Source: an uncultured Bacteroidales bacterium
GTDB lineage: Bacteria > Bacteroidota > Bacteroidia > Bacteroidales > JAGOPY01
Direction: 5' to 3'
DNA length: 64,000 bases
NCBI GenBank assembly: GCA_964567785.1
Contig: CAZMOK010000011.1
Coordinates: 657-64,656, forward strand
Shown piece after piece: positions 13,701-43,101 of the stretch. Every line of letters starts with the position of its first letter. The first letter of the stretch is position 1. The notes under the pieces are model-generated. The model was not told where the DNA came from. It worked only from the letters and a program-made list of their open reading frames with translations, and did not search any database. The position numbers were made by a program, and so were the translations under genes.

Positions 13701-13929
13701 ATGCCTTATCCAGGACAACGGTATAGGACGTGAAAAGGCCAATGAACTGAGAGAGCAGTCGGGCATAAAAAGACAGCCCAGGGGTATGATGATAACACGT
13801 GAACGCCTGGATATATTAAAGAACCAGTACAAAGAAGATTTTGGTGTTAAGATCATAGACCTGAAGGATAAGAAAGGCCGGCCGGCCGGTACGCGGGTGG
13901 AAATTACCTTCCACTACTTTGAGGCATAG
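10783..13929 (+). CDS. sensor histidine kinase: periplasmic two-component-regulator propeller repeats + Y_Y_Y, LytS/YehU-type kinase core
   Basis: 1048 aa with a signal peptide. There are more than 10 repeats of the W[IV]GT..GLN.[YF] propeller motif and one TM helix (WAFRILFAIVIIFSFWIIIY). The His_kinase block LQMNPHFIFNSLNAIQSF and an HATPase region (LIQDNGIG) follow. Confidence 0.85.
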   Translation: MKKITAICLLSLFTSFSLPSQEKATIKFDRITTENIIVQKGLSQNSGYAILQDKRGFMWFGTWDGLNRYDGYEFIEYDVESGLSHNTIRDLYEDDNGYLWIATEGGLDRLDMETGEIVIYRKDITVPNSLSDSYILDINPQGDVLWISTANGLNKYNMETGTFKRIKFYDGEGDPDMASYINRTYSDRSGNLWIATRYGLHKYDLLEDEYHPFYHDPADKRSLSSNNVNDVLEDSEGNIWIGTANGLNKMEPDSDGFVRYMNDKKDAESLSDNHVSVLYEDNKGHIWVGTSNMLNILDPETGKFRRLMNRMSSVSLSNNNILSIYEDPSGTIWVGTYKGINKVDKNSSRFPHYSHIPDDPSSLSNNIVYAINECSDDNLWVGTYGGLNIMDRAREEFTVLEHRPDDPNSIASNKIRAIVEDPGGVIWIGFENSGLDSYNKETGEFTHYSYSPDDTNSLIDNRIVAMESDNSGRIWIGTRSGLNVFDPETGIHNHITFQPGDTASLVSPVVLGVYLNSKEDMWVGTDYGVHVFDMELNRIESFYPQPDNPKALKGSRIMFIGEDADGYYWLGTIGSGLSRYDPLTGEFRNFGENEGLPNNVVYAALDDGNGFLWITTNKGLAKFDKRNESFVVYDAKDGIQGNEFNAGAYHQNEQGELFFGGMNGLNAFRPEDIRVNKSIPRLVITEVRVFNEALKGPFYDGDTIFLSYRDNFFSIKFAALEYTNPSKNIFRYKLENYDKDWITAKANRRVAEYKKVSSGSYTFRLIGANNDGIWNQEGITLNLVIRPPWWETWAFRILFAIVIIFSFWIIIYSRFKTLKKKHDVEKKMLNIEKEMFEIEQKALRLQMNPHFIFNSLNAIQSFVIANDTDKAIAYLAKFSHLMRMILANSSEAYIPLKDELKAVQYYIDLEKLRFDDKFEYEISVEDDIDEEFIEIPPMILQPYVENAIIHGLIHAEKKGQLEIIVSLEKKSMKCLIQDNGIGREKANELREQSGIKRQPRGMMITRERLDILKNQYKEDFGVKIIDLKDKKGRPAGTRVEITFHYFEA

Positions 13930-14077
13930 AATAAGCTATATATTGAATAACCGGCCTTTAGATAAATATTATCATTTTGCCCTGGGAATTGAGTTTGTTT
14001 TTTCTTAATTTAGCATAAGGCAAAAGGATTTCCGGGCTGGGATTTTCCCGTTTTTTGATAATTTACAGACGCAAAGA

Positions 14078-14827
14078 ATGATTACGGCTATCATTATAGA
14101 AGATGAGCAAAAGTCGGTGGATACGCTCAAAGGGCTCCTCTCAAGATATTGCCCCTCGGTAACTGTGTTAGATGTGGCAGGAGGGTATCGTGAGGGTATC
14201 GAAAAGATCAGGCTTCATAGCCCTGATGTTATCTTCCTGGATATCCAGATGCCTGATGGCAGCGGTTTTAAAGTGCTGGAAGAATTGAAAGAAATGAATT
14301 TTGACGTGATCTTTACAACTGCTTTCGATCAGTTTGCAATCAAAGCGATCAAATACAGCGCCCTTGACTACCTGTTAAAACCAATTGATCCGCAAGAGCT
14401 TATGGAGGCGGTCAAAAAAGTCGATTCCAAAAAACGCACCTCCGATAAGAACAAGAGTATTGAAGCGCTGCTCGACAATATCAAGTCACCCGAAGAAGAT
14501 CCTCACAAAATAGTGCTTTCCACATCTGAGAAGATCCACATAATAGATGTAAAAGATATTGTAAGGTGTGAATCGGATAACTATTACACTCATTTCTATT
14601 TTACTGACGGTTCAAAGCTCCTTGTTTCGAAAACGCTGAAAGAGAACGAAGAACTGCTCAGTAACCACAACTTCATCAGGCCTCATAAGTCGCACCTGAT
14701 AAATGCCGGCTACATCAAGAGCTTTGTGAAACAGGATGGCGGTTACATTATAATGGATGACGGCAGCAAGATCCCTGTTTCGAGAAGGAAAAAAGAAAAG
14801 ATTATGGAAATCCTGATGAATTTATAA
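14078..14827 (+). CDS. LytTR-family DNA-binding response regulator
   Basis: 249 aa. The receiver domain is marked by IIEDE, DVIFLDIQMPDGSG and LDYLLKP. The C-terminal LytTR domain is marked by IVRCESDNYYTHFYF and RPHKSHLIN. Confidence 0.9.
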   Translation: MITAIIIEDEQKSVDTLKGLLSRYCPSVTVLDVAGGYREGIEKIRLHSPDVIFLDIQMPDGSGFKVLEELKEMNFDVIFTTAFDQFAIKAIKYSALDYLLKPIDPQELMEAVKKVDSKKRTSDKNKSIEALLDNIKSPEEDPHKIVLSTSEKIHIIDVKDIVRCESDNYYTHFYFTDGSKLLVSKTLKENEELLSNHNFIRPHKSHLINAGYIKSFVKQDGGYIIMDDGSKIPVSRRKKEKIMEILMNL

Positions 14828-14850
14828 AGATTCTACATAACACCCTGAAA

Positions 14851-14889
14851 GCCGTAAACTGATTGACTTTTGCCGTAAACTTGTTGATC
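14851..14889. promoter_or_regulatory. pair of direct repeats, candidate LytTR response-regulator binding site
   Basis: The repeats are GCCGTAAACTGATTGAC (14851-14867) and GCCGTAAACTTGTTGATC (14872-14889), with a 10/10 identical core and a 21-bp register. On the minus strand the cores read TCAGTTTAC and CAAGTTTAC, against the LytTR consensus [TA][AC][CA]GTTN[AG][TG]. Confidence 0.4.
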
Positions 14890-14913
14890 AGCCCCTTCCC
14901 ATTTTTAATATAT

Positions 14914-14921
14914 TACTTTTA
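14914..14921 (+). promoter_or_regulatory. degenerate Bacteroidota -7 box (TACTTTTA)
   Basis: It lies 24 nt upstream of ATG 14946, the same spacing as the perfect TAnnTTTG boxes elsewhere in the window. The last base is A instead of G. Confidence 0.3.
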
Positions 14922-14945
14922 TCTTTAGGCCTCAAAACCTAAAGC

Positions 14946-15446
14946 ATGGATGATCTTATATATTTATTACTGTTCCTTGCCTGGGCTGCATTTGCCTTTT
15001 ACAGGAACAGCCAGAAGAAAAAGCAAAGAGAGGCCCAGAGGACAAGAGCCGCTCAACAGCAGCCTGATCCAGAAGAGAATCAGGAAGAGGGAAGCCCGGG
15101 TTCTTTGCTCGAGGAAATCCTGCTGGGAGAACAGGAAGAGAGAACTATTGAGGAACCATATTTTGAATCGGAAAGTCCGGAAAGTGAAAGCCGGATCTAT
15201 ACCGAGACACCCGGAGCAGAAGAAGAAAATGTGCCGGTGGATTTTGATGACGAGTATAATCAGAGAGGTGTTACCTCGGTTGAGGAGCTCGATTTGGAAA
15301 ACGGTGAAGTCGAATCAGATAAGGATGAAAAAGCCAGCAGAAATCTTCAGGTGGTCGCATTTGAAGAAGACCAAAACGAGGCTTTCGAGTTTGATCTCCG
15401 AACAGCTGTGATATATTCTGAAATCCTTAATCCTCGCTACTTTTAG
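14946..15446 (+). CDS. membrane-anchored acidic protein, unknown function
   Basis: 166 aa. It has an N-terminal TM helix (LIYLLLFLAWAAFAFY), a basic patch, and a long Glu/Asp-rich region. The conserved-looking C-terminus is FDLRTAVIYSEILNPRYF. Confidence 0.55.
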   Translation: MDDLIYLLLFLAWAAFAFYRNSQKKKQREAQRTRAAQQQPDPEENQEEGSPGSLLEEILLGEQEERTIEEPYFESESPESESRIYTETPGAEEENVPVDFDDEYNQRGVTSVEELDLENGEVESDKDEKASRNLQVVAFEEDQNEAFEFDLRTAVIYSEILNPRYF

Positions 15447-15478
15447 AAGTATTTAGGGTTTGTTAAATTATTGTTAAT

Positions 15479-15486
15479 TATATTTG
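15479..15486 (+). promoter_or_regulatory. Bacteroidota sigma-A -7 box TATATTTG
   Basis: Matches TAnnTTTG, 77 nt upstream of the TonB-receptor ATG 15564. It is a possible internal promoter of the module. Confidence 0.35.
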
Positions 15487-15563
15487 GAGATTAAATTTTT
15501 TTATTTATAACTTTACCGACTTCAAACTTGCGCAGTGTTTAACCTAACATAAATTTTGTGGGT

Positions 15564-18500
15564 ATGTTAAGAAATTTACTTTTAACTACTGGATTTGTAC
15601 TTTTATCCTGCCTTTACGCTTTTTCTCAACAGGGAGCACTTCAAGGAAAAATAACTGATAAAGAAACCGGAGAGCCACTTCCCTTCGTCAACATAGTTGT
15701 TGAAGTGGGGGGCACCCAGATGGGTGGTGCATCATCCGACTTTGATGGTAAGTATGTCATCAAACCCCTGCCCCCGGGCAGGTATGACGTAAAAGCCACT
15801 TATGTTGGGTATAAGCCATTGCTTATCAGGGGTGTTGGTATTGCAGCCGACAAGATCACTTTCTACGACATCCAGATGGAGTCGACTGCCCAGACCCTGG
15901 AAACTTTTGAGGTAGTGGATTATAAAGTGCCTCTTATTTCGAAGGACCAGACCACCTCTGGTGGATCGGTTACCTCAGAGCAGATCGCCAAGATGCCGAA
16001 CCGTAATGCCAACTCAATAGCCACAACCGTTGGTGGTGTATTCTCACGCGACGGTGAGCGAGGCCGTGTGAGAGGTGCCCGTAGTGATGCCACCGTTATG
16101 TTTATCGATGGTATCAGGGTTAGAGGTTCCTCAAACCTGCCGGCCCAGGCCATCGAGCAGGTGGATGTGGTTTTGGGTGGGGTGCCCGCCCAATACGGGG
16201 ATGCCACGGGTGGTATTATCAACGTAACAACCAAAGGACCCTCAAGGAAGTTTGGAATGGGGGTAGAAGTAGAATCATCTCAGTTCCTCGATGCCTTTGG
16301 ATATAACAGGGTCGGGCTCAACCTTAACGGTCCGCTCTTTTCAAGGAAAGACGAGGAAGGAAACCGCACGACATCCCTCCTTGGATTCTTCCTTGCCGGC
16401 GATTTCACTTACCGCCGGGACAGCAGGCCTGTCATAAGCGATATATACAAGGTAAAGGATGATTCACTCAGGTTCCTTGAAAACAACCCCCTAAGACCAT
16501 CCGGTTTAGGCAGCGGAACATTCCCCAATGCAGCTTATACAACTTTTAACAGCCTTGAAAAGATAAATACTAACCAGAATACCCCTTCGTGGGAGGTTAA
16601 CCTTCAGGGTAAAATTGACGTAAGGACAACCGAAACCATTAACCTGACATTCGGTGGTAGCTATTACCACAGAGACAGGTATAACTGGAATTATTTCCAC
16701 TCATTGTACAATTACGACAAAAACGCCCATGATGTAGATAAGACCTGGAGGGTATTCGGTAAGTTTACACAGCGTTTCCCAACCAAGAGTGAGAGCGATG
16801 CCTTCGTAAAGAACTTCTACTACACTATACAGGCTGACTACACGAAGAATACCGGATACCAGGAAGATCCCGACCATAAGGACGATTACTTCAAGTACGG
16901 CTACCTGGGCAAATTCACAACCTATAAGACCCCTACTTATGAAACACGCCAGAACGATACAGTGAACGGACAAGCTATCCCCGAAGCTATTTACTTAAAT
17001 AGCTGGGACTTCGATACGCTGGTAACTTTTGATCCTTATGATTACAACGAGATCATTGCAAATTATACAACTTCTTATTACGACCTGTTTGACGATCCGT
17101 TCGGCAATTATCAGAACCTCGACCAGATACAGCTTGGTGGTGGCCTGGTCAACGGTCAGTCGCCCGGAAGCATATATGGCCTTTGGGGTGCCCCCGGAAC
17201 AATACAGACAGGTTACAGCCAGTATGATAATTCCCAGATCGGTATAAATGCCTCAGGTGCGGCCGACTTTGGAAATCATGAGCTTAAATTCGGTATTCAA
17301 TACGACCAGAGGATCGACAGGTTCTTTGCCTATGCCCCACAGCGTTTCTGGACACTCATGCGTCAGCTCACAAACTTCCATATCAGGGAGCTGGATATTG
17401 AAAATCCTTTCATCGTGCCCGGCTCAGATCTCGACACTGTAAAATATTACAGGAATTATGACCAGTTAACCCAAAGGACTTTCGACATCAACCTGAGGAA
17501 AAAGCTTGGACTGCCGGTCGATGGTGTCGATTTTATTGATATCGATTCCTATGATTATAACACCCACTCCATTAATTATTACGATAAGAACGGAAAATTG
17601 CACACTATAAATTATGGTGAGAATCTTTTCACCATAGATATGTTTAGCGCCGACGAACTCTGGAACGACGGTATTTCATCTTATACCAACTACAGGGGTT
17701 ATGATTATAAGGGTAATAAGCTTGAAGCCCGTCCGTCATTTGAAGACTTCTTTACGAAAACCGACGAGAATGGTGATTTTACCCGCGACATTGGCGCTTA
17801 TGAGCCTATTTATGTAGCCGGTTATATCCAGGATAAGTTCGCATTCCGTGACCTTATCTTTAATGTGGGTTTGAGGGTCGACAGGTTTGATGCCAACCAG
17901 ATGGTTCTCAAAGATCCTTACTTGCTTTACGAAGCCTACACCGCTGGTGAAGTTTCTGAAATAAGTGGTACACCTGTTGAACACCCCGATAACATCGGTG
18001 GTGACCATGTGGTTTATATAGATAACGTGAATAATCCCACCAGGGTGGTTGGTTATCGCAGTGAAGGAGTCTGGTTTAATGCTGCCGGTGATGAGATCCT
18101 TGATCCCAACGTGCTTGATGTAGGTTCAGGTATTTCACCTTACATAGTCGACCCGTCGATCGAAAGGCCAACCGTCGACGCATTCGAGGACTATGAACCA
18201 CAGTGGAACTGGATGCCGCGTATTTCATTCTCATTCCCGATCTCTGATGAGGCGCTGTTCTTTGCCCATTACGATGTTCTTACTCAGCGCCCGAGGGGCA
18301 ACATCTTTGCCAACCCGTCAACTTACTATTTCTTTGATAATATTTCAGGTACAATTAACAATCCGAACCTGAAACCGGAACAGACGATCGACTATGAGGT
18401 TGGTTTCCAGCAGAAGCTGACGAATACATCATCCCTTAAACTTGTTGCTTTCTACAGGGAGCAACGTGGGATGCTACAGATCTTCCGTTTCAATGGTGCT

Positions 18501-19277
18501 TATCCGAAGGATTACACCTCATTTAACAACATTGACTTCGGTACTGTGAAAGGGTTTACCATTCAGTACGACCTCAGGAGAACAGGTAATGTGGCATTGC
18601 AGGCATTCTACACACTTCAGTTTGCAGACGCAACCGGTTCATCAGAAACAACAACAGCAGCTCTCGTTGCTTCAGGTCTTCCAAATCTTCGTTCAACCTT
18701 CCCGATCGAGGATGACCGTCGTCATAACTTCAACATTTTCCTCGATTTCAGGTGGGCCGACGGAGCTGACTACAACGGACCTGTTACCAGGAGGGAAGGA
18801 TCAGGAAAACCGCCTATCCAGTGGTTGAAGAACACAGGATTCACAGTCACCATGACCGGTGGTTCAGGAACACCTTATACTCAAGCGAGGAATGTGACCG
18901 GAATCAATCAGGCCGGAAACAACCTTGTAAAAGGTTCTTATTTCGGATCAAGACTGCCATGGTCCTTCAGGGTCAACTTAACTCTTGATAAGGATATTTA
19001 TTTCAACCTTGGAAAAGGCGAGGACAAAAGGCAGGCATCCCTTAATGTTTACCTGCGTGTAAATAACCTCCTCAACTCCAAGAATATCCTGAGTGTATAT
19101 CCATATACTGGAAATCCTGATGATGATGGTTACCTCACAGCCCCCGAATGGCAAAAACAGATCAGCGAGCAGTTGAGTGAAGAAGCTTACAGGGACCTTT
19201 ACTCTATTGCGGTGAACAGGCCCTGGAACTATGCGTCACCCAGAACGATCCGCCTCGGGATGATCCTGAATTTCTAA
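15564..19277 (+). CDS. TonB-dependent receptor with N-terminal carboxypeptidase-regulatory-like domain
   Basis: The track ORF starts at GTG 15558; I prefer ATG 15564 (MLRNLLLTTGFVLLSCLYAFSQ). It has a CarboxypepD_reg pattern (GKITDKETGEPLPFVNIVV..DGKYVI..LPPGRYDV) and a plug (VTSEQIAKMP, IDGIRVRG, GGVPAQYGDATGGIINVTTK). A very long barrel ends in the aromatic ...RLGMILNF. Confidence 0.85.
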   Translation: MLRNLLLTTGFVLLSCLYAFSQQGALQGKITDKETGEPLPFVNIVVEVGGTQMGGASSDFDGKYVIKPLPPGRYDVKATYVGYKPLLIRGVGIAADKITFYDIQMESTAQTLETFEVVDYKVPLISKDQTTSGGSVTSEQIAKMPNRNANSIATTVGGVFSRDGERGRVRGARSDATVMFIDGIRVRGSSNLPAQAIEQVDVVLGGVPAQYGDATGGIINVTTKGPSRKFGMGVEVESSQFLDAFGYNRVGLNLNGPLFSRKDEEGNRTTSLLGFFLAGDFTYRRDSRPVISDIYKVKDDSLRFLENNPLRPSGLGSGTFPNAAYTTFNSLEKINTNQNTPSWEVNLQGKIDVRTTETINLTFGGSYYHRDRYNWNYFHSLYNYDKNAHDVDKTWRVFGKFTQRFPTKSESDAFVKNFYYTIQADYTKNTGYQEDPDHKDDYFKYGYLGKFTTYKTPTYETRQNDTVNGQAIPEAIYLNSWDFDTLVTFDPYDYNEIIANYTTSYYDLFDDPFGNYQNLDQIQLGGGLVNGQSPGSIYGLWGAPGTIQTGYSQYDNSQIGINASGAADFGNHELKFGIQYDQRIDRFFAYAPQRFWTLMRQLTNFHIRELDIENPFIVPGSDLDTVKYYRNYDQLTQRTFDINLRKKLGLPVDGVDFIDIDSYDYNTHSINYYDKNGKLHTINYGENLFTIDMFSADELWNDGISSYTNYRGYDYKGNKLEARPSFEDFFTKTDENGDFTRDIGAYEPIYVAGYIQDKFAFRDLIFNVGLRVDRFDANQMVLKDPYLLYEAYTAGEVSEISGTPVEHPDNIGGDHVVYIDNVNNPTRVVGYRSEGVWFNAAGDEILDPNVLDVGSGISPYIVDPSIERPTVDAFEDYEPQWNWMPRISFSFPISDEALFFAHYDVLTQRPRGNIFANPSTYYFFDNISGTINNPNLKPEQTIDYEVGFQQKLTNTSSLKLVAFYREQRGMLQIFRFNGAYPKDYTSFNNIDFGTVKGFTIQYDLRRTGNVALQAFYTLQFADATGSSETTTAALVASGLPNLRSTFPIEDDRRHNFNIFLDFRWADGADYNGPVTRREGSGKPPIQWLKNTGFTVTMTGGSGTPYTQARNVTGINQAGNNLVKGSYFGSRLPWSFRVNLTLDKDIYFNLGKGEDKRQASLNVYLRVNNLLNSKNILSVYPYTGNPDDDGYLTAPEWQKQISEQLSEEAYRDLYSIAVNRPWNYASPRTIRLGMILNF

Positions 19278-19314
19278 ACTTTTTTGAATAACAGAATATA
19301 CAGCTATTAAAATA

Positions 19315-22300
19315 ATGATCAAAATGAGGAACATATTCAAAGTATTACTACTCGGCTTATTTTGCTTCCTTATAACTGAAGTTACTATTGCTGAAGAGCA
19401 CATTGGATTTAACAAAAAGAAATCGAAAGAAGTGAAGGCCAGTGCTGCCGGATGTTCCGCCGCCTCAGGCTTCCGCTTCCTCGACATCAACAATGTCAGG
19501 GCGAGGATAAACACCGGTGGAGACATGTGGTGGGACCTCCCGGGCGGTATCGGTGCCCAGTATTACATCCCCAAGACAGGCTCTGCCACCTCTATGTTCT
19601 CTGGTTCATTATGGATCGGTGGCCTCGACATCAATAACCAGCTGAAACTGGCTGCTGTCAGGTACCGCCAGGTAGGTAATGATTACTGGCCCGGACCTTT
19701 GACAGTCGACGGAACTGCTGCCATTGAACAGGAAACATGTGCCAAATATGACGAGCACTTTATCATGACCAGGGCCGAAGTTGACCTGTTCCTTGAATGG
19801 TACAACAGTGATAATAAGGCAGAAGATTTCCCCGGTTATACCATCCCGCAGTCGATCCTTGACTGGCCCGCCCATGGTGATGTTGCCCTGGGACAAAGTT
19901 ACTATCTGGCACCATTCTTCGATGCAGATGGTGATGGCAATTACGATCCAAATAACGGGGATTATCCTTATTATGACCTCGACAACGAACTTTGTCCGAT
20001 CAACTATGCCGATGACCCGAATTACGTTCCGGCAAGGACTATGGAGGAGGAACTGACCGAATACCCGGTGCCTTTAAAGGGAAGCATCCTCGTCGACCAG
20101 GTGATCAAAGGGGACCAGACCCTTTGGTGGGTGTTCAACGACAAAGGTAACGCCCATACAGAAACCCAGGGGGCTCCCATTGGTATGGAGATCAGGGGCC
20201 AGGCATTTGCCTTCGCAACTAACGATGTGATCAATAACATGACCTTTTACAGCTATGAGATCATCAACCGTTCAACTTTTGAGCTGACCAATACATTCTT
20301 CAGCCCATGGGTTGACACCGACCTCGGTTATGCGTTTGACGACTTTGTAGGTTGTGATGTACTGAGAGGGCTCGGCTATTGCTATAACGGTGTCGATATA
20401 GACGGCAGCGGTGAGCCGGAATCATATGGTGCACAACCACCTGCTGTTGGAGTTGACTTCTTTCAGGGGCCATATATTGATCCCGATGGCTTTGATAATC
20501 CTGCTTTCCAGGGAGGAACACCCGAAGGTTGCGCAGCACTCGGACAGGGCCCAAACTTTGAAGTTGACCAGATGGCCATTAACGGCGTGAACTTCGGAAA
20601 TGATATTGTAGATGATGAAAGATATGGTATGCGCCGTTTTGTATATCATATTAATTGTAATGGCTCTCCCTGGTGCGATCCTGATATTGCACCCGAATAT
20701 TATAACTTCCTGCGTGGTATCTGGCAGGATAACACCAAAATGCTTTATGGAGGTAACGCACATGTTAATTCAGGTGCTTCAGGAAGGGAATGTGACTTCA
20801 TGTTCCCGGGCGATTCCGACCCCTGTAACTGGGGAACCAACTTCCAGCCTCCCGGTGATGGTTACAATCAGAACGGTAAATACTGGACTGAAGTGGAAGC
20901 CGGGAACAATCCCGACGACAGGCGGTTTATGCAGTCGGCAGGTCCTTTCACCCTGAAACCGGGTGCCGTAAACTATATTACCGTAGGTATCCCCTGGGCA
21001 CGCGCTGCCTCAGGCGGACCGGAAGCCTCTGTTGAGCTACTCAGGATTGTCGATGACAAATGCCAGGCGCTCTTCGACAACTGTTTTAAAGTTATTGATG
21101 GCCCAAGTGCACCGGATCTCGTGATCCAGGAACTTGACAAGCAATTCATTTTCTATCTGACAAACAGCCCTCTGTCAAACAATTATAAAGAACAATACGA
21201 AGAATTTGACCCGAATATCATTCAGCCGCTGCCCGGCCAGCCCGACGAAAGAAGCGACTCAGTATATCGTTTTGAAGGTTACCAGATATTCCAGCTCAGG
21301 GATGCCAATGTAACCCTCGGTGCTGCCAAGGATGAGTTCGGAAATTATAACCCCGACCTTGTAAGGCTCGTTGCCCAGTTTGATGTTAATAACGGAGTTA
21401 CACAAATTGTAAACCATTATTTCAACAAAGCAATTGGCTTTAATGTTCCGGTTGTGGAGGTTGAAGGTGGTGATGAAGGCATCAACCATTCATTTGTGAT
21501 AACTGAAGATGCATTTGCCACCGGTGATAAAAGGCTTGTCAACCACAAGCAGTATTATTATACCGCAGTGGCTTATGCCTATAATGAATACCTGCCCTAC
21601 GACCCTGAAGACGTAAATGGTAAACTCGGGCAGAAAACACCCTATCTTGCTGGTCGTAAGAACATCAAGGTTTACACCGGTATTCCCCATATCCCGCTTT
21701 ATTCGGAGCGTACAACTTCTTCCAACGCACAGTATGGCGACGGTGTTGAGATAACAAGACTCGAAGGTCAGGGCAATGACGGGGTCATTATCGACCTTAG
21801 CGAAGAGACCATTGAAGATATCCTTTCCAGGCAGCCAGCCGGCGCTGTGGTTGACGGAGATACCGTTAAGTTTGGTGATCCTGAGTATCCGCTGGCCTAT
21901 CAGGCTAAATATGTAAAAGGAAAAGGGCCAATATCCATAAAGGTCGTTGATCCTCTTAACCTCAAGCAGGGTAAGTACAAACTAATGTTCGATTCGCTCT
22001 TCATGGAGAAGAACTTTGATGTTACCGGTACTGAAGGTCTTGTTGCCGGAGGAGATACAGCAAGCTATGCTTCAGGTACATGGAAGCTCATCGATATGAA
22101 TACGAACGAAGTGGTGCCTGGTGACGTCCCGATCCACGATCAGAACGAACAGTTGTTCCCTGACCTGGGAATCTCGATTTCCATGAAATCGATTTATGAG
22201 CCGGGGCCCTATAAGATAGGCGAAAAGCAGGATCAGTCGAGCTTTATTTCCATTTATGACAATCTTGCCCAAAACAACGGGTTGCTTGAATCTTCCCTTA

Positions 22301-23694
22301 CTTTTGCCGATAGTTCAAGGCAATGGCTCACCGGGGTGCAGGACAATGATGTACCCGGAAGCCCGCAGAACTGGATAAGGGCCGGTACATATACAGGTGG
22401 TATTGCAGGTTCAGGCGACTGGAACATGCCCTCGAAACCACTCGATCCCAATGGTGCTTACGAGAAAATCGTTAACGGTACATGGACGCCTTATGTCCTG
22501 ACAGCAGCCGGAGAACAGAGCGATGTAGGTCCGGCTTACAGTCTCCAGTCGAAAACCATGCCTATGGCAGATCTCTCAAGTGTCGACATTGTTATGACTT
22601 CCGACAGGAGCAAATGGACCAGGGCGGTGGTACTGGAAATGTCACCGGATGAAACACTCTCCGAAGGAAACGTTGAAAGGTTCAAGTTCCGTGCCGGCCA
22701 GTCTGTTGATAAGGATGGAAATCCCGCAGAAATCGGCAGCGGGCCAAGCGAAGATCCTGACGACCCGAACTACATAGCAGAAACCGGTATGGGATGGTTC
22801 CCCGGATATGCTATCAATGTAGAAACCGGTGAGAGGCTTAATATTGCCTATGGTGAAGACAGCTACCTGTCGCGACAGAACGGCAGGGATATGGTTTTCA
22901 ATCCCACAAGCCAATTATACGACCCGGTTGACTTTAACCCTGTATTCGGAGGGAAGCATTATGTTTACGTAATGGCTTCTGCCACCAGGGATATCAATGA
23001 TTCAGTTTACAATTTCCCGCCCTACGACGCGGGCAGGTTCATCCGCTACGGATACGATCTGTATGAATTACCTGACTTTCTCTATGAGATAACGTGGTTC
23101 TCCACAGTGATGTGGGTTGGTATGCCTCTGCCTTTAAATGAGGAACTCTGGCTGTCGAATGAAGCAAAGATCAGGATCAGGCTCGGAAAATCCTATGAGA
23201 GGTTTTACTCCCAGCCACTGGACTCTACTGCTATTGCAAATTCAGAGAATGGACATTTTCCATTGTATGAATTCGAAACAAAAGGCTTCACCGAGATCAG
23301 CCAGGAGGTAGTTGCAGAGAACGAGCTCGACCTTATCAAGGTTGTCCCGAATCCCTATTATGCTTATGCAGGCGGGCCGGGATATGAGAGGAATACCCTT
23401 GATAACAGGGTCAAGATCACAAATATCCCTGAACAGTGTACAATCACCATTTACAATGTGAGCGGTACCCTTGTAAGGCAGTATAAAGTTGATAAAGGCG
23501 GCATTGTGAACCCGAGGTCTGCCACTGCGGGCGTTGAAACCGATGCCAAAACATCGATCGATTGGGACCTGAAGAATTTTGCAGGTGTCCCTGTTGCCGG
23601 TGGGGTCTACATTATTCATGTTAAGTCCGATTATGGAGAAAAAGTTGTGAAATGGTTCGGAGGTCTGCGTCCTCCTGATCTCAACGTCTTTTAA
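19315..23694 (+). CDS. large secreted protein of unknown function with T9SS-type C-terminal sorting domain
   Basis: 1459 aa with a signal peptide (FKVLLLGLFCFLITEVTIA) and the Ca-loop-like DADGDGNYDPNNGDYP. I recognise no catalytic motif. The last ~90 aa follow the T9SS CTD pattern: VVPNPYY...CTITIYNVSGTLVRQY...IDWDLKNFAGVPVAGGVYIIHVKSDYGEKVVKWFG. Confidence 0.6.
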   Translation: MIKMRNIFKVLLLGLFCFLITEVTIAEEHIGFNKKKSKEVKASAAGCSAASGFRFLDINNVRARINTGGDMWWDLPGGIGAQYYIPKTGSATSMFSGSLWIGGLDINNQLKLAAVRYRQVGNDYWPGPLTVDGTAAIEQETCAKYDEHFIMTRAEVDLFLEWYNSDNKAEDFPGYTIPQSILDWPAHGDVALGQSYYLAPFFDADGDGNYDPNNGDYPYYDLDNELCPINYADDPNYVPARTMEEELTEYPVPLKGSILVDQVIKGDQTLWWVFNDKGNAHTETQGAPIGMEIRGQAFAFATNDVINNMTFYSYEIINRSTFELTNTFFSPWVDTDLGYAFDDFVGCDVLRGLGYCYNGVDIDGSGEPESYGAQPPAVGVDFFQGPYIDPDGFDNPAFQGGTPEGCAALGQGPNFEVDQMAINGVNFGNDIVDDERYGMRRFVYHINCNGSPWCDPDIAPEYYNFLRGIWQDNTKMLYGGNAHVNSGASGRECDFMFPGDSDPCNWGTNFQPPGDGYNQNGKYWTEVEAGNNPDDRRFMQSAGPFTLKPGAVNYITVGIPWARAASGGPEASVELLRIVDDKCQALFDNCFKVIDGPSAPDLVIQELDKQFIFYLTNSPLSNNYKEQYEEFDPNIIQPLPGQPDERSDSVYRFEGYQIFQLRDANVTLGAAKDEFGNYNPDLVRLVAQFDVNNGVTQIVNHYFNKAIGFNVPVVEVEGGDEGINHSFVITEDAFATGDKRLVNHKQYYYTAVAYAYNEYLPYDPEDVNGKLGQKTPYLAGRKNIKVYTGIPHIPLYSERTTSSNAQYGDGVEITRLEGQGNDGVIIDLSEETIEDILSRQPAGAVVDGDTVKFGDPEYPLAYQAKYVKGKGPISIKVVDPLNLKQGKYKLMFDSLFMEKNFDVTGTEGLVAGGDTASYASGTWKLIDMNTNEVVPGDVPIHDQNEQLFPDLGISISMKSIYEPGPYKIGEKQDQSSFISIYDNLAQNNGLLESSLTFADSSRQWLTGVQDNDVPGSPQNWIRAGTYTGGIAGSGDWNMPSKPLDPNGAYEKIVNGTWTPYVLTAAGEQSDVGPAYSLQSKTMPMADLSSVDIVMTSDRSKWTRAVVLEMSPDETLSEGNVERFKFRAGQSVDKDGNPAEIGSGPSEDPDDPNYIAETGMGWFPGYAINVETGERLNIAYGEDSYLSRQNGRDMVFNPTSQLYDPVDFNPVFGGKHYVYVMASATRDINDSVYNFPPYDAGRFIRYGYDLYELPDFLYEITWFSTVMWVGMPLPLNEELWLSNEAKIRIRLGKSYERFYSQPLDSTAIANSENGHFPLYEFETKGFTEISQEVVAENELDLIKVVPNPYYAYAGGPGYERNTLDNRVKITNIPEQCTITIYNVSGTLVRQYKVDKGGIVNPRSATAGVETDAKTSIDWDLKNFAGVPVAGGVYIIHVKSDYGEKVVKWFGGLRPPDLNVF

Positions 23695-23743
23695 TAAAAC
23701 TACGAATCAAGAACTATTTGCGATAAAATAAACCTATCCTGAT

Positions 23744-24811
23744 ATGAAGAACTTTTATAGAACGCTCATTGCCTCAGTGTTGATCATAGCATTGATACTT
23801 CCAGTCTCGCAGGTTTATGCCGGTAATAAGGACAGATCGGGCCAGGCAGGAGCCCCGGAGCTTCTGATCAATCCCTGGTCAAGAAGCTCCGGTTGGGCCA
23901 GTGCCAGCACTTCACGTGTGGTAGGCCTTGAGAGCCTCTTTGCCAATGTGGCCGGAATGGCCTTTACTAAAAAGACAGAAGTTGCATTTACTTATACCGA
24001 CTGGCTTAAAGGTACTGGTATCAACGTCATCAATTTTGGGTTGGCCCAGCGGCTCGGAGAAAGCAGCGTAATAGGATTCAACGTAATGTCTATGTCGTTT
24101 GGCGATCTTGATGTCACTACCGTAGAACAACCCGAAGGTACAGGAGCAACTTTCAAACCTAATCTGCTGAACGTTAATGTTTCCTTCTCAAAGGCCTTTT
24201 CGAACAGCATATATGGTGGAATTAACTTTAAGGTGATATCCCACTCAATCCCGGATGCCAGTGCCAGTGGAATAGGCATTGATGCCGGCGTTATGTATGT
24301 GACCGGTGAGAGGGACCAGGCAAGATTTGGTGTTGCACTCAAAAATATCGGACCAAAGATGAAGTATACAGGTGATGGCTTTTCCATCAAAGCCCTCTTC
24401 GAAAGCAGTGATTATTCAGTGACAGTTCACCAGAGGTCGGAAAGTTTTGAATTGCCAACCCAGCTCCGTATCGGTGCCTCTTACGATTTCCTTCTCGGTG
24501 AAAGTAACAGGCTCACTGTGGCCGGATCATTCATCTCCAATTCGTTCACCAAAGACCAGTTTGTACTCGGTGCGGAATTCAGCCTTTTCGATTACCTGAT
24601 GCTGAGGGCCGGATATACCTATGAGTCGGATATCACTGAAGATATCGAAAACACCAACAGGACAAACGTCTACAACGGACCAAGTTTCGGTGCATCCGTA
24701 CAGGTTCCTTTCAACAAGGAAACGGGCGCAGGATTCGCTATCGATTATTCCTATCAGACAACCTCCCACTTCAAGGGAACGCACGTGATCGGGGTAAAAA
24801 TTGGTCTCTGA
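23744..24811 (+). CDS. PorV/PorQ-family (FadL-like) outer-membrane beta-barrel protein
   Basis: 355 aa with a signal peptide. The N-terminal GQAGAPELLINPWSRSSGWASASTSRVVGLESLFANVAGMAF follows the PorV/PorQ signature. Alternating beta-strand pattern continues to the C-terminus ...GTHVIGVKIGL. Confidence 0.6.
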   Translation: MKNFYRTLIASVLIIALILPVSQVYAGNKDRSGQAGAPELLINPWSRSSGWASASTSRVVGLESLFANVAGMAFTKKTEVAFTYTDWLKGTGINVINFGLAQRLGESSVIGFNVMSMSFGDLDVTTVEQPEGTGATFKPNLLNVNVSFSKAFSNSIYGGINFKVISHSIPDASASGIGIDAGVMYVTGERDQARFGVALKNIGPKMKYTGDGFSIKALFESSDYSVTVHQRSESFELPTQLRIGASYDFLLGESNRLTVAGSFISNSFTKDQFVLGAEFSLFDYLMLRAGYTYESDITEDIENTNRTNVYNGPSFGASVQVPFNKETGAGFAIDYSYQTTSHFKGTHVIGVKIGL

Positions 24812-24836: not shown

Positions 24837-24844
24837 TATATTTG
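24837..24844 (+). promoter_or_regulatory. Bacteroidota sigma-A -7 box TATATTTG (greA)
   Basis: Matches TAnnTTTG, 63 nt upstream of greA ATG 24908. The hairpin at 24856-24877 lies in between. Confidence 0.4.
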
Positions 24845-24855
24845 CAAATTCATTT

Positions 24856-24887
24856 GAGGCCCTCTCCGGAGGGTCTCATCTCTTTTT
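24856..24887 (+). terminator. intrinsic terminator-like hairpin plus T-tract
   Basis: GAGGCCCTC (24856-24864), loop TCCG, GAGGGTCTC (24869-24877) form a 9-bp stem with one G-U pair and a tetraloop. It is followed by ATCTCTTTTTAT (T5 at 24883-24887). It lies 45 nt after the PorV-like stop and 21 nt before the greA ATG. Confidence 0.6.
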
Positions 24888-24907
24888 ATGTCCAAAAGGA
24901 GGCAGTT

Positions 24908-25381
24908 ATGTCAGAAGTGAAGTATTTTACAGAAGAGGGGCTTTATAAGCTGAAGAAGGAACTGGAGCACCTCACTTCTGTTGAAAGGCCTGCCATTTCA
25001 AGGCAGATAGCAGAGGCGAGGGAAAAAGGCGATCTTTCAGAGAATGCAGAATATGATGCTGCCAAGGATGCCCAGGGGATGCTTGAAATGAAAATAGCAA
25101 AACTCCAGGAAGAGATCAGTAATGCCCGGATAATAGATGAATCCAAAATGGATAAATCCAAAGTTCTTATTCTTTCCAAAGTGAAACTTAAGAATCTGAA
25201 AAATGGGGCTACCATGGCTTATACAATTGTACCTGAAAAAGAAGCAAACCTGAAAGAATTCAAGATCAGTGTGGATTCACCCATAGCAAAGGGATTACTT
25301 GGAAGGTCGGTTGGTGATGTGGCGGAAATTGATGTTCCTGCCGGCAAAATGAAATTTGAAGTAATAGAAATTTCAAGATAA
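24908..25381 (+). CDS. greA: transcription elongation factor GreA
   Basis: The track ORF is extended upstream to TTG 24842. ATG 24908 gives the canonical 157-aa GreA: MSEVKYFTEEGLYKLKKELEHL...RPAISRQIAEAREKGDLSENAEYDAAKD. Confidence 0.9.
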   Translation: MSEVKYFTEEGLYKLKKELEHLTSVERPAISRQIAEAREKGDLSENAEYDAAKDAQGMLEMKIAKLQEEISNARIIDESKMDKSKVLILSKVKLKNLKNGATMAYTIVPEKEANLKEFKISVDSPIAKGLLGRSVGDVAEIDVPAGKMKFEVIEISR

Positions 25382-25392
25382 ACATATTCATT

Positions 25393-25800
25393 ATGGCCAG
25401 CATTTTCACCAAAATAGTCAACGGGGAGATCCCTTCTTATAAAATTGCCGAGGACGACAGGTTTTATGCATTTCTGGATATCAATCCCCTGGCTAAGGGA
25501 CATACACTTGCTATTCCCAAAAGGGAAGTGGATTACATCTTCGATATTGAAGATTCTCTTTACAAAGACCTTTGGGCTTTTGCCAGGAAAGTTGCACTGG
25601 CAATAGAAAAAGTTGTGCCATGCGAGCGAATGGGGCTCACTGTGTTAGGCCTCGAAGTTCCGCATGCCCATATACACCTGGTTCCTATCAATACAGTTTA
25701 TGATATTGATTTTAAAAAGCCGAAACTTAAACTGACCGAAGGAGAATTTGAAGAGCTTGCAGAGGAGATCAGGCAGTCATACAGGAAACTTTATCAGTAA
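25393..25800 (+). CDS. HIT-family (histidine triad) protein
   Basis: 135 aa with IFTKIVNGEIPSYKI and the histidine triad HAHIHLVP. Confidence 0.9.
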   Translation: MASIFTKIVNGEIPSYKIAEDDRFYAFLDINPLAKGHTLAIPKREVDYIFDIEDSLYKDLWAFARKVALAIEKVVPCERMGLTVLGLEVPHAHIHLVPINTVYDIDFKKPKLKLTEGEFEELAEEIRQSYRKLYQ

Positions 25801-27695
25801 GCCCTTATATCTTTTCCCTGAATATAGTTAATAAAGGCATTGTTCACAACTTTATTACCTCCCGGGGTAGGATAGTCGCCCGTAAAATACCAGTCGCCCT
25901 TATTCCCGGGGCTCGCATCGTGAAGGTCTTCTATCGTTTGATAAATAACGGTGATCCCGGCATTAATGCCCGGGGTCTTTAGCATCTGGGCTATCTTTTC
26001 AGAGATCTGAACCGCAGAAAAAGGCTTATAGATCTGCTTCACATAGTTCACAACCTCTTCCTTGGGCTTTCCAACCTGGCTCAGGCATTTCCGGTAAACA
26101 TCATTTATTATCGATTGCTGCCTTGTCTCTTTCAGTAACTCTATTGCGGCCTGGAAGGCAATGAAGTCGTGAAGTTTGGCCATATCAATACCATAACAAT
26201 CAGGGTACCTTATCTGAGGTGCCGAAGAGGCAATGACGATCTTCTTTGGCCCCAGCCTGTCGAGAATTCTTATAATACTATACTTAAGTGTAGTGCCCCG
26301 AACTATGGAGTCGTCCAGGATCACTAAATTATCAGATCCACTCCTTATGCTGTCGTAAGTTATATCGTAAATGTGCCCTACAAGATCGTTCCGCTCCGAT
26401 TCCTGGGTGATAAATGTCCTGAGTTTCTGGTCTTTCACCGCAACTTTTTCAACCCTGGGCTTTATGGCAAGGATATTCTCAAGATCTTCATCGTTGTAGC
26501 CGGCAGGCAACCTTCTGATCTTATCTTTTTTGATCTTGTTGCAATACCTGTTTAGTTCCTCACCAAGTCCCCTGAAGGCTACGGCAGCGGTATTCGGAAT
26601 GTATGAAAAAACAGTATTTTCCAGGTCAAAGTCTATAGCTTCCAATATGGGGCCGGCCAGTGATTTACCGAGCTGCTTCCTTTCTTTGTAAATTTCTGCA
26701 TCAGTGCCCCTGGAAAAATAGATCCTTTCAAAGGAACAGGATTTCCTGGGCATGGGCTCCTTGAACATCTCCTGTTTTATCTCACCCGATTTCCTGATCA
26801 ACAGGGCGTGACCCGGCCTGATCTCTTCAATCATTGAAAATGGCGCGTTGAAAGTGGTCTGTATCACGGGACGCTCTGAGGTTACCACAGCTACTTCATC
26901 GTCGTGGTAAAAATAGGCCGGACGAATACCTGAAGGGTCCCTCATTACGAATGCATCACCATGCCCTATCAGCCCGGCTATGGCATAGCCCCCGTCCCAG
27001 TCGCGGGCCGACCTGGATAAAATGCTGCCAATATCAAGATTTCCTGCGATCATGGGCGAAATATCCCGCTTCTGGTAACCCTGCTCCTTGAATTCCCTGT
27101 AAAGCCTTTCGTTCTCATCGTCCAGAAAATGGCCGATCTTTTCTAGTACAGTTATGGTATCCGAAGTCTCTATGGGATACTGACCCAGATCGATCAGGTA
27201 CTCGAAAAGCTCGTCTACGTTTGTCAGATTGAAATTACCTGCAAGTACAAGGTTCTTGGTTTTCCAGTTATTATGGCGGATCACGGGGTGCAAGAGTTCG
27301 ATCCCATGCCGGCCGAATGTGCCGTACCGGAGGTGCCCGAGGAATAACTCACCTGTGAATTCTGAATTTTGTTTAAGCCAGTTTACATCTTTATACCTTT
27401 CAGAAACAGGCTCTACAGTGTTTTTAATGCGTGTATATGCTTCCTGGAAAATCTCAGTGATGGCTGAACTCGAGTTCGACCTGATTCTGTTGATGAATTT
27501 ATTTCCGGGTTCAAGATCAAACTTGATGGTTGCAATCCCCGCTCCATCCTGGCCCCTGTTGTGCTGTTTCTGCATCAACAGGTGCATCTTCTTCAGTCCG
27601 TAGAATGATGTACCATATTTTCCAAGGTAATACTCTAAAGGCTTTAAAAGGCGAATGAGGGCAATTCCACATTCATGTTTGATCTGTTCACTCAT
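25794..27695 (-). CDS. purF: amidophosphoribosyltransferase (long class-II glutamine amidotransferase form)
   Basis: 633 aa. It has the N-terminal nucleophile context MSEQIKHECGIALI, GHLRYGTFG, and the PRTase loop LVILDDSIVRGTT. Confidence 0.8.
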   Translation of the reverse strand: MSEQIKHECGIALIRLLKPLEYYLGKYGTSFYGLKKMHLLMQKQHNRGQDGAGIATIKFDLEPGNKFINRIRSNSSSAITEIFQEAYTRIKNTVEPVSERYKDVNWLKQNSEFTGELFLGHLRYGTFGRHGIELLHPVIRHNNWKTKNLVLAGNFNLTNVDELFEYLIDLGQYPIETSDTITVLEKIGHFLDDENERLYREFKEQGYQKRDISPMIAGNLDIGSILSRSARDWDGGYAIAGLIGHGDAFVMRDPSGIRPAYFYHDDEVAVVTSERPVIQTTFNAPFSMIEEIRPGHALLIRKSGEIKQEMFKEPMPRKSCSFERIYFSRGTDAEIYKERKQLGKSLAGPILEAIDFDLENTVFSYIPNTAAVAFRGLGEELNRYCNKIKKDKIRRLPAGYNDEDLENILAIKPRVEKVAVKDQKLRTFITQESERNDLVGHIYDITYDSIRSGSDNLVILDDSIVRGTTLKYSIIRILDRLGPKKIVIASSAPQIRYPDCYGIDMAKLHDFIAFQAAIELLKETRQQSIINDVYRKCLSQVGKPKEEVVNYVKQIYKPFSAVQISEKIAQMLKTPGINAGITVIYQTIEDLHDASPGNKGDWYFTGDYPTPGGNKVVNNAFINYIQGKDIRAY

Positions 27696-27728: not shown

Positions 27729-27853
27729 TGAATATTGTTGCAGAATGTATATTTCTTGTGGTAATTGCCTCCCCTTTCATAAAAAAATCAGAAATTTGAG
27801 GGATATCAAGGTTTTTACCCTATAAATAATTTTTTTAACAAAAACTATTGCGC

Positions 27854-29458
27854 ATGAAAACCAACTGTATCACCCTTTTTCTATCAGTTCTTTTTTTTCT
27901 GAATATCCAAAATTATCTCTCCGCCCAGGTAGATAAATCTGACTGGGAAGGGGGTGTCCCTGAAGGCTGTACATCCATCACGGCAGGAAAGCTTGCCACT
28001 GCTGATGGTTCAGTTATCACATCCCACACCGACGACAGCCACAGGACCCGGTCCTGGATCGACATTGTGCCTCCCAAAAAGCACGGAAAGGATGCTACTG
28101 TTCCCATGTACAAGAGGATGAGCTCCGACACCTTTGCCATGCCAACCTATCATCACAAGATGATCGGCAGTATACCCCAGGTTGAGGAAACATCCGGGTA
28201 CATCAATACGGCCTACCCCTGCATGAACCAGTACCAGGTTGCTATCGGAGAGTCCACCTTCGGAGGGCGTGCATCCCTGCAGTCCAATGAAGGGCTTATC
28301 GACTGCCAGAGGCTTTGCCAGCTTATGCTCGAGAGGGCCAGAACGGCCAGGGAGGCAATTGAGATTGCCGGTGAGCTCACAAAGAAATACGGGTGGAATG
28401 ACGCAGGGGAATGCCTGACCATATCAGATAAGAATGAAGTGTGGCATCTTGAGATCGTTGGACCGGGCAAGGGAAAATCAGGATCTATCTGGGTGGCTCA
28501 GCGTGTCCCCGACGAGGAGATCTCTGTCAATGCGAATGCCAGCCGTATCATGAAGATCGACCTCAAAGACAAGGATCATTTCATGGCTTCGGATAACATC
28601 TATGACATGGCCCTCGACAGCGGATGGTGTGAATCGAAAGATGATTTTGAATTCTGTTATGCCTATGCACCTGAAAGCCGCACCTCACTTGCTGCCAGAA
28701 GGAGGGAATGGAGGGTGTTTGACCTGCTGGCACCATCGCTGGGCCTGGATCCCAATGCAGAGAATTATCCTTTCTCCGTAAAGCCCGATGATAAGGTTAC
28801 ACTTTCAGACCTGGTCATGGTTTTTAAAGATTATTATGAAGGCACTCCCTTCGATATGACCAAAAACCTCACTGTTACAGATGAAAATGGCAAGACGGTA
28901 ATATCACCCCTGGCAAATCCTCATATGCCCTACGACGCGAACAAGCTGCACGATATCAACGGCGGATGGGGATGGCGCGGTGAAAGGACGATAGCCAGGT
29001 GGTACACCATGTATGCGACCATAATACAGAGCCGCGACTGGCTCCCCGATGAAGTTGGGGGTGTGGTGTGGCTGGCAATGGACAATGTTGCCACATCTGT
29101 TTATATACCTGTATATTGCTGTGTCACAGATCTTCCGGAACCCTACAAGACTCCTGGACGGCCAAACGGTTTTACATACGAATCAGCATGGTGGGCCTTC
29201 AACAGGTTGGGTACGCTTACAGCACAACGCTGGGGCGATATGAGGCATGATGTGGATGCTCTGTGGGACCCGATACAGGAAGAACTTTTCACCAGGCAAA
29301 ATGAGGTTGAAGCCGAAGCAATTGAGCTGTTGAAAGAAGACCGGGAAGAAGCAGTAAAATATCTCACTGATTACACCCACCGCTGGGGTACTGAGGTTGT
29401 GGATAAAGCCTGGAAACTGGGAGATTTTCTCTGGACAAAGTACGATGAGAAATTCTGA
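27854..29458 (+). CDS. C69-family dipeptidase, secreted
   Basis: The track start is TTG 27848; ATG 27854 is preferred. It has a signal peptide followed by GCTSITAGKLATADGSVITSHTDD (the C69 N-terminal Cys nucleophile context) and EIVGPGKG...IWVAQRVPD. Confidence 0.8.
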   Translation: MKTNCITLFLSVLFFLNIQNYLSAQVDKSDWEGGVPEGCTSITAGKLATADGSVITSHTDDSHRTRSWIDIVPPKKHGKDATVPMYKRMSSDTFAMPTYHHKMIGSIPQVEETSGYINTAYPCMNQYQVAIGESTFGGRASLQSNEGLIDCQRLCQLMLERARTAREAIEIAGELTKKYGWNDAGECLTISDKNEVWHLEIVGPGKGKSGSIWVAQRVPDEEISVNANASRIMKIDLKDKDHFMASDNIYDMALDSGWCESKDDFEFCYAYAPESRTSLAARRREWRVFDLLAPSLGLDPNAENYPFSVKPDDKVTLSDLVMVFKDYYEGTPFDMTKNLTVTDENGKTVISPLANPHMPYDANKLHDINGGWGWRGERTIARWYTMYATIIQSRDWLPDEVGGVVWLAMDNVATSVYIPVYCCVTDLPEPYKTPGRPNGFTYESAWWAFNRLGTLTAQRWGDMRHDVDALWDPIQEELFTRQNEVEAEAIELLKEDREEAVKYLTDYTHRWGTEVVDKAWKLGDFLWTKYDEKF

Positions 29459-43100: not shown

Positions 43101-43101
43101 C

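Follow-up and report, generated by a model that had tools for sequence, protein, structure and literature searches.

A conserved predicted outer-membrane operon of Bacteroidota that combines a divergent TonB-dependent transporter, a giant protein with a type IX secretion-type C-terminal domain, and a PorV/PorQ-family barrel

What kind of system is encoded by a gene block in which a TonB-dependent transporter (TBDT) is followed by a very large protein with type IX secretion system (T9SS) features and by a PorV/PorQ-like barrel, and do these genes belong together? The question is raised by positions 14946-24811 of a 64,000-nucleotide stretch of DNA from an uncultured Bacteroidales bacterium (GTDB lineage Bacteria; Bacteroidota; Bacteroidia; Bacteroidales; JAGOPY01; GenBank assembly GCA_964567785.1, contig CAZMOK010000011.1, positions 657 to 64,656 of the forward strand). 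The whole stretch is referred to here as the window, and positions are counted from its first nucleotide. A preliminary description, made from the sequence without database searches, had read the block as a possible surface capture/uptake or anchoring module with dedicated regulation. Our results indicate that the core unit is a predicted three-gene outer-membrane operon consisting of the TBDT, a protein of 1459 amino acids (aa), referred to below as the giant protein, and a PorV/PorQ-family barrel. The parts are each of a known kind, and their fixed combination matches no described system found in the literature; full-text literature searches brought up no published description of the trio.

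The list of open reading frames (ORFs) of the window places four co-directional ORFs on the plus strand of the block, separated by intergenic gaps of 117, 37, and 49 nt, which reproduces the gene coordinates and the spacing of 37-117 nt given earlier. The TBDT gene lies at 15564-19277 and encodes 1237 aa (an alternative start at 15558 would give 1239 aa), the gene for the giant protein at 19315-23694 (about 160 kDa), and the gene for the barrel at 23744-24811 (355 aa); ahead of them, at 14946-15446, stands the gene for a 166-aa accessory protein that belongs to no Pfam or NCBIfam family. In the giant protein, a signal peptide is followed by about 1300 aa of body and by a predicted T9SS-type C-terminal domain (CTD) at about residues 1340-1459 (23332-23691, plus strand), placed by Foldseek and by matches to PorZ and PorU models. 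Beyond the barrel gene, a hairpin with a T-tract resembling an intrinsic terminator occupies 24855-24887 on the plus strand; its 10-pair stem with six GC pairs (24855-24878) is followed by TCTCTTTTTA and was the top-scoring terminator-like site in the region scanned. An ORF at 24842-25381 was considered as a fifth member of the module and rejected: it is greA, with its true ATG at 24908, directly 3' of the hairpin and followed by a HIT-family gene. The block therefore ends at the hairpin, where the preliminary description had put its end.

The giant protein was searched against one genome per species, which gave at least 582 species with a relative, and the best 80 of these were examined as loci (numbered with the prefix L); nine additional contigs were used to sample a wider taxonomic range. 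All source genomes are metagenome-assembled genomes (MAGs), a few of them with doubtful labels such as Chlorobiota or Omnitrophica, and the best 80 loci come from MAGs labelled Bacteroidales, Lentimicrobiaceae, or Bacteroidota. Across all fetched loci, a TBDT-like gene stands immediately 5' of the giant gene in 73 of 82 testable copies, and a PorV-like gene immediately 3' of it in 81 of 87. Identity to the window proteins ranges from 44 to 97% for the TBDT and from 49 to 98% for the barrel; for the giant protein it is 49-96% across the 80 loci, the best of the at least 582 species genomes, and about 40% in Flavobacteriales. The three families show similar rates of evolution in the 80 loci. The exceptions to the trio order comprise second giant paralogues located after greA (L007, 14678-18874; L009, 16078-20283; L010, 10001-14176; L045, 14678-18847), fragmented TBDT alignments in two loci (L020 and L045), and stand-alone giants in L084 (two in tandem, 8001-16403) and in L088 (a single one, 7001-11179). 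These extra copies have no neighbouring barrels, and in one sublineage the second copy sits between greA/HIT and a purF-like gene.

Close relatives of the window also keep housekeeping genes around the trio, with ahcY upstream and greA, HIT, and the purF-like gene downstream, so that synteny among them alone is no proof of functional linkage and is partly plain inheritance. The linkage question is decided by the more distant loci. There, the trio is found intact behind a thioredoxin-like gene (L083), a 2-hydroxyacid dehydrogenase gene (L085 and L086), or an exonuclease gene (L087), a metallo-beta-lactamase-fold gene replaces greA downstream in L086, and the intergenic gaps within the trio measure 0-70 nt. 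A conserved synteny of barrel, giant, and PorV-like genes, which had been named as a check on the module, is therefore found as tight synteny in several lineages with differing flanking genes. The Flavobacteriales MAGs L081, L082, and L089 have the order PcrB, ACPS, AhcY, small ORFs, TBDT, giant, PorV-like barrel, GreA, and HIT. As a separate observation, the arrangement in which genes for a PcrB-like GGGP synthase, ACPS, and AhcY (6865-9883 in the window) precede the trio and those for GreA and HIT (24908-25800) follow it is common to Bacteroidales and Flavobacteriales MAGs, and this depth of gene-order conservation, seen between the window and L081, L082, and L089, is unusual.

Turning to the individual proteins, the 1237-aa protein is predicted to be a genuine but divergent TBDT, whose barrel region, at about 1000 aa, is unusually long. 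It carries a signal peptide, a CarboxypepD_reg extension (56.9 bits), a TonB-box-like stretch (ETFEVVDYKVPLI), a plug (37.3 bits against a Pfam cut-off of 23.9), the barrel region, and a C-terminal Phe. A profile of 14 TBDT orthologues matched the plug of the colicin I receptor Cir (1.5e-9) and, less strongly, those of YncD and of a PQQ transporter (1.3e-4). Between the N-terminal extension and the plug, the orthologues share the consensus VEVVDYKVPLI, in which P123, L124, and I125 are invariant and whose likeness to a TonB box is one of motif resemblance only. The combination of CarboxypepD_reg, plug, and barrel that had been proposed for this protein is supported by Pfam for the first two domains, and the barrel family PF00593 is matched by 4 of the 14 orthologues (best 1.1e-15) and not by the window protein at E ≤ 1. 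The NCBI label of the orthologues is 'carboxypeptidase regulatory-like domain-containing protein' only. No SusC/RagA or SusD model was among the NCBIfam and Pfam matches at E ≤ 0.01, and the gene that follows the TBDT is that of the 1459-aa protein.

Homologues of the giant protein are very numerous. A word-indexed search yielded more than 6,479 of them among 8,000 scored candidates, the top matches being full-length with 57-96% identity and bearing no name more specific than "T9SS type A sorting domain-containing protein", and an exhaustive phmmer search with residues 1-700 against representatives of 50%-identity clusters gave 6,855 matches at E ≤ 1e-3 and 1,989 at E ≤ 1e-30. The body of about 1300 aa has no Pfam, NCBIfam, or PDB match, neither as a single sequence nor as a profile of 25 members (38-71% identity), so that no characterised family was matched, in agreement with the earlier remark that no catalytic motif could be recognised in it. 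The DADGDGNYDPNNGDYP loop quoted for the protein is present. The first 600 or so residues are the best-conserved part, with numerous invariant positions occupied by Asp, Asn, Gly, Trp, and Cys. Modelling of the N-terminal 700 aa gave a poor model (predicted local distance difference test, pLDDT, 57.4) for which Foldseek returned no significant fold; its best matches, the N-terminal sandwich-plus-toroid folds of GH94, GH116, GH63, and PL17 enzymes, reached only E 0.1-1 with a TM of about 0.17 and were set aside as noise or, at best, a faint lead. In L086 (7861-12924) and L087 (7001-12283) the giant protein is longer, at 1687 and 1760 aa, and the variant in L086 matches PSII_BNR, a Ycf48-like propeller, which explains the NCBI name 'YCF48-related protein'.

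The C-terminus of the giant protein is more informative. In a model of the last 860 aa (pLDDT 79.7), Foldseek matched the last domain only, to the PorZ CTD 5m11 (E 1.3e-4, probability 1.00) and to the RgpB CTD 7pq4 (probability 1.00); the CTD part of this model is mixed in confidence, with two loops below pLDDT 50. The modelled structure supports a T9SS-type CTD fold, superposable on the Ig-like beta-sandwich of solved CTDs, and with it the sorting-domain pattern that had been seen in the last residues of the protein. Among the 25 family members, the C-terminus of the PorZ model matches 19 (best 6.2e-12), the generic type A model TIGR04183 matches 16 (best 4.4e-6), and the PorU model and PF18962 match four each; the window protein itself has no PF18962 match in the Pfam scan. 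The PorZ equivalog NF052228 scores 23.3 bits against a cut-off of 260, on residues 1363-1443 alone, with the propellers unmatched. Compared with two ordinary CTDs encoded in the window, that of the giant protein is interrupted by an insertion and has a conserved tail of 11 residues, GGLRPPDLNVF, which extends past the usual CTD end; K1446 and R1452 are invariant in the 25-member alignment. By the model matches, the giant CTD resembles those of PorZ and PorU more closely than the generic cleaved type A tag. PorZ and PorU are the two T9SS proteins that keep their CTDs, by which they dock on PorQ and PorV, and it has been proposed in a review that cognate PorV-like barrels shield CTDs from cleavage (PMC10202324). 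The two ordinary type A cargos of the window, a GH18-CUB-CTD protein (54707-56491) and a BNR-CTD protein (38141-39709), show that this organism possesses a T9SS; genes of the T9SS machinery (porU, porV, sprA, etc.) are absent from the window.

The 355-aa barrel passes the PorV family model NF033709 with 161.4 bits (cut-off 90), as expected from the PorV/PorQ-type signature described earlier, and can be classed as a FadL-like outer-membrane barrel of that family. It fails the PorV equivalog NF033710 (85.9 bits, cut-off 250), the PorQ equivalog NF033711 (74.9 bits, cut-off 220), and the PorP/SprF model TIGR03519 (20.6 bits, cut-off 90.55). Its only PDB sequence match is F. johnsoniae PorV, at E 1.6e-5. 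Judged by these scores, the barrel is a separate clade inside the PorV/PorQ family. The possibility that it is the housekeeping PorV of the organism was rejected because it misses the PorV equivalog cut-off and because no porU adjoins its gene or occurs anywhere in the 64-kb window.

How far the unit extends upstream was considered separately. The 166-aa protein has, as described, one N-terminal transmembrane helix and an acidic tail ending in YSEILNPRYF; between them lie a KKK cluster and a variable acidic linker, and the C-terminal motif FDLRKAVIYSEILxRPY is conserved. By the positive-inside rule, we infer that the bulk of the protein would face the cytoplasm. Orthologues are found in about 60 Bacteroidales loci, and in L070, L071, L076, and L081-L083 their place is taken by an unrelated small basic ORF of 86-107 aa, which starts with a signal peptide or lipobox and has an extremely basic C-terminal tail (e.g. 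ending in KRMKKSRKAARRYDTGKRKPFFKRIFTRKRRRK), and neither the protein nor a substitute is present in L072 and L077-L080. The 166-aa protein is thus restricted to some lineages and was rejected as a core member of the module.

The same holds for the two-component pair directly upstream. A sensor histidine kinase gene (10783-13929, plus strand; Reg_prop 2.6e-58, Y_Y_Y 3.6e-14, LytS-type His_kinase 1.4e-23) and the gene for a LytTR-family response regulator (14078-14827, plus strand; Response_reg 9.9e-21, LytTR 3.9e-20) are found where they had been reported, at 10783-14827, with Pfam domains in both. For the kinase, hydropathy suggests a signal peptide, some 770 periplasmic residues containing the Reg_prop propellers and Y_Y_Y, and one transmembrane helix at residues 793-811; Reg_prop and Y_Y_Y are domains of the hybrid two-component glycan sensors of Bacteroides. 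Of the best 80 loci, about 45 have the pair ahead of the module, and it is absent there from all of the Flavobacteriales loci; as a lineage-specific element it was rejected as a core member. Of the arrangement originally proposed, the pairing of a TonB-type barrel with a giant T9SS-type protein and a PorV-family barrel instead of a SusD stands, and the kinase/regulator pair and the 166-aa protein as general parts of it do not.

Where the regulator is present, a candidate operator accompanies it. Two 13-nt direct half-sites, 21 nt apart (CCGTAAACTGATT-N8-CCGTAAACTTGTT), lie at 14852-14885 on the plus strand, past the stop codon of the regulator gene and 60 nt 5' of the ATG of the 166-aa protein. 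A direct repeat with the consensus CCGTnAACTGATT-N8-CCGnnAACTGATT is found on the same strand, 43-76 nt before the ATG of the first gene, in the window and in 19 regulator-bearing loci (L001-L003, L005-L009, L011-L013, L020, L022, L024, L035, L041, L045, L073, and L075), and about half of the regulator-bearing loci have no recognisable direct repeat. Off-target matches numbered four in 3.78 Mb scanned, and a looser search of the window, allowing up to three mismatches, returned four direct-repeat matches against 0.9 expected. This is the geometry of LytTR regulator sites, in which two direct half-sites recur with a period of about 21 nt, and the repeat is probably a phylogenetic footprint of the binding site of the regulator on the module promoter. 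Such a conserved LytTR-type repeat supports the dedicated regulation that had been suggested. Two further observations concern this type of signal. A perfect copy of TATATTTG, which we take to be the Bacteroidota -7 promoter box, lies at 15479-15486 in the 117-nt gap before the TBDT gene, with TTTG 16 nt upstream, and may mark a second, internal promoter. At 56274-56302 on the minus strand, within the GH18-CUB-CTD gene, a short tandem run of the heptamer AACTGAT (AACTGATAACTGATAACTGATAACTGA) was picked up as a chance match of the operator search.

Among known systems, the trio can be compared with the SusC/SusD (RagA/RagB) pairs for TonB-dependent uptake in Bacteroidota, which Reg_prop/Y_Y_Y sensors regulate. 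As in these, the TBDT has a CarboxypepD_reg extension and the gene of its presumed surface partner follows directly; a periplasmic Reg_prop and Y_Y_Y sensor adjoins the trio, and the order of regulator, TBDT, and surface partner is that of Sus-like loci. In contrast to them, the trio has neither a SusC/RagA signature match nor a SusD, the partner is a 1459-aa protein with a T9SS tag and not a lipoprotein, a third, PorV-like barrel is present, the regulator is a classical kinase and LytTR pair instead of a hybrid two-component system, and the locus is highly conserved and lies among housekeeping genes. The PorZ-PorQ and PorU-PorV pairs of Porphyromonas gingivalis resemble the trio in their CTDs and in the family of their barrels, and anchoring of the giant protein by a retained CTD, as we propose it, would copy this precedent (PMC10202324). 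The giant body, however, is unrelated to them, the trio barrel misses the PorV and PorQ equivalog cut-offs, and the giant and barrel genes are adjacent and share a predicted operon with a TBDT gene.

Type B T9SS cargo with PorP/SprF partners (SprB-SprF, PG1035-PorP) likewise consists of a large surface protein encoded beside its own small FadL/PorV-like barrel; such cargo is anchored on cognate PorP/SprF-like barrels, and the barrel is thought to act as both carrier and anchor (PMC9143113). The trio differs in that the giant CTD is of the type A/PorZ kind, the barrel reaches only 20.6 bits against the PorP/SprF cut-off of 90.55, and a TBDT is part of the unit. A TBDT that acts outwards has a precedent in Oar of Myxococcus xanthus, which is reported to be required for the secretion of PopC (PMC6434023). 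By description, Oar is likewise long, begins with a CarboxypepD_reg domain, and lacks a SusD partner; unlike the trio, it has no known T9SS or PorV-like partner, and a folded giant protein of 160 kDa could not traverse a TBDT barrel.

We tentatively favour a reading in which the giant protein is exported by the T9SS, is anchored on its private barrel, and works with the TBDT in TonB-powered capture and uptake. The operon structure, conservation, domains, CTD type, and operator that enter into it are read from the sequences. All three proteins would cross the inner membrane by Sec, signal peptides being visible in their sequences, and the giant protein would then pass the outer membrane via the T9SS of the cell, using its CTD. 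This CTD would stay uncleaved on the neighbouring PorV/PorQ-like barrel, as that of PorZ does on PorQ and that of PorU on PorV, and would pin the giant protein to the surface. Beside or atop the TBDT, the giant protein would capture, and perhaps process, a ligand that the TBDT would import with energy from TonB; by analogy, its gene holds the slot that SusD has next to SusC. In this lineage, the kinase with its periplasmic propellers and the LytTR regulator would switch the operon on via the direct-repeat operator. Within this scheme, we infer the physical association of the proteins, the retention of the CTD, the direction of transport, and the ligand.

Several observations weigh against this reading. 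Conservation, at 40-70% identity across orders, is unusually high for nutrient uptake and like that of the neighbouring housekeeping genes, and the locus lies within a conserved housekeeping neighbourhood, more in the manner of core envelope machinery than of a polysaccharide-utilisation locus. No degradative enzymes are linked to the locus, the giant body has no binding or catalytic domain recognisable by Pfam, NCBIfam, PDB, or fold search, the window protein stays below the type A CTD threshold (TIGR04183, 15.7 bits against 23), and some genomes (L007, L009, L010, L045, L084, and L088) carry giant paralogues without adjoining barrels. In view of the high conservation, the housekeeping setting, and the lack of linked enzymes and of a recognisable binding domain, a structural or envelope machine or an outward-acting TonB device has to be taken seriously. 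In a core machine of the envelope or surface structure, which we regard as rather unlikely and yet as the most serious competitor, the giant protein would be a layer, sheath, or integrity factor held by the PorV-like barrel, and the TonB-type barrel a second anchor or a TonB-powered export or remodelling device, much as PopC secretion requires Oar. Such a role would agree with the high conservation across orders, with the position of the trio inside the PcrB, ACPS, AhcY ... GreA, HIT neighbourhood in Bacteroidales and Flavobacteriales, with the lack of both linked enzymes and SusD, and with the atypical barrel region of about 1000 aa in a protein whose orthologues are named only for a CarboxypepD_reg-like domain. 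Precedents are a TBDT reported to be needed for protein secretion (PMC6434023) and the FadL-family barrel BamG, on which a large extracellular partner is held within the BAM complex of Bacteroidota (PMC12578637; PMC12611786). Nevertheless, the inducible-looking two-component operator of this lineage fits a conditional function better than a constitutive structure, conservation of the plug and of the TonB-box-like stretch is what an importer needs, and Pfam, NCBIfam, and PDB searches revealed no similarity of the giant protein to a known surface-layer or assembly factor.

A T9SS-accessory role or mere inherited adjacency is less likely than an envelope machine or outward TonB device. It seems quite unlikely that the giant protein and the barrel are a PorZ/PorQ-like pair forming a variant attachment or sorting module of the T9SS, for example for the delivery of an acceptor or glycolipid to the sortase or as a dedicated carrier. 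The CTD, which is closest to those of PorZ and PorU, the PorV/PorQ family membership of the barrel, and the wide occurrence of the proteins in T9SS-bearing lineages speak for this, but the giant body is unlike the PorZ propellers or PorU (the PorZ model reaches 23 bits against 260, in the CTD only), a TBDT has no place in the known attachment complex, and sensor-kinase control would be unexpected for a core secretion part. It is more improbable still that the three genes act independently and are neighbours by descent only, in which case an orphan TonB-dependent receptor, a T9SS cargo of the ordinary sort, and a FadL-like channel of general function would share, by chance, a part of the chromosome that rearranges slowly. 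In many loci, ahcY, greA, and HIT are conserved along with the trio, which shows gene order in the region to be generally stable and would suit such an explanation. The explanation conflicts with the survival of the trio when both flanks change (L083, L085, L086, and L087), the very short gaps of 0-70 nt in distant loci, the single terminator and single conserved operator, and the similar evolutionary rates of the three proteins.

The remainder of the window contains further features of interest. It is rich in peptidase genes (4111-6246, 27848-29458, 29497-32124, 33779-35581, and 50072-52225), which include an S9-like peptidase, a C69 dipeptidase, two M14 carboxypeptidase-like genes, and an S46 dipeptidyl-peptidase and suggest a proteolytic lifestyle. 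The purF-like gene at 25794-27695 on the minus strand encodes a 633-aa protein with a weak amidophosphoribosyltransferase match (116 bits, cut-off 350); many loci nonetheless have it beside the module, with 63-98% identity, and its product is, by prediction, a divergent glutamine amidotransferase. An envelope cluster at 40586-49485 comprises genes for an outer-membrane efflux protein, an HlyD-like adaptor, an OstA_2/LptD_N protein, a MlaD-domain protein, an N-acetylmuramoyl-L-alanine amidase, and LptD. L083 and L086 likewise have an OstA_2 gene near the trio.

Taken together, the trio is tentatively read as a carrier-anchored T9SS surface protein joined to a TBDT, with a real chance that it represents a new machine. 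A very large protein family without domain annotation (6,855 clusters at 50% identity) is thereby placed in a genomic context and given a role that can be tested, and the candidate operator and the sensor kinase offer a practical route to the inducing signal and thereby to the function. If the giant protein is indeed anchored as we propose, private carrier-barrel anchoring would reach beyond type B cargo and include a type A CTD of the PorZ-like kind, and if it also serves uptake, the trio would link TonB transport with surface partners to the T9SS with carrier barrels, the two hallmark outer-membrane systems of the Bacteroidota, which are separate in textbook accounts. A bolder interpretation, doubtful at present, is that the trio may be an ancient unrecognised outer-membrane machine of the Bacteroidota, in which a TonB-energised barrel would be in physical contact with a subunit of 160 kDa and of new fold, which the T9SS would deliver and a carrier barrel would anchor. 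Such a machine would constitute a third mode of partner attachment for TBDTs, besides lipoprotein lids and none, and would carry out a job new to the phylum, for example the uptake of macromolecules or a TonB-driven surface process.

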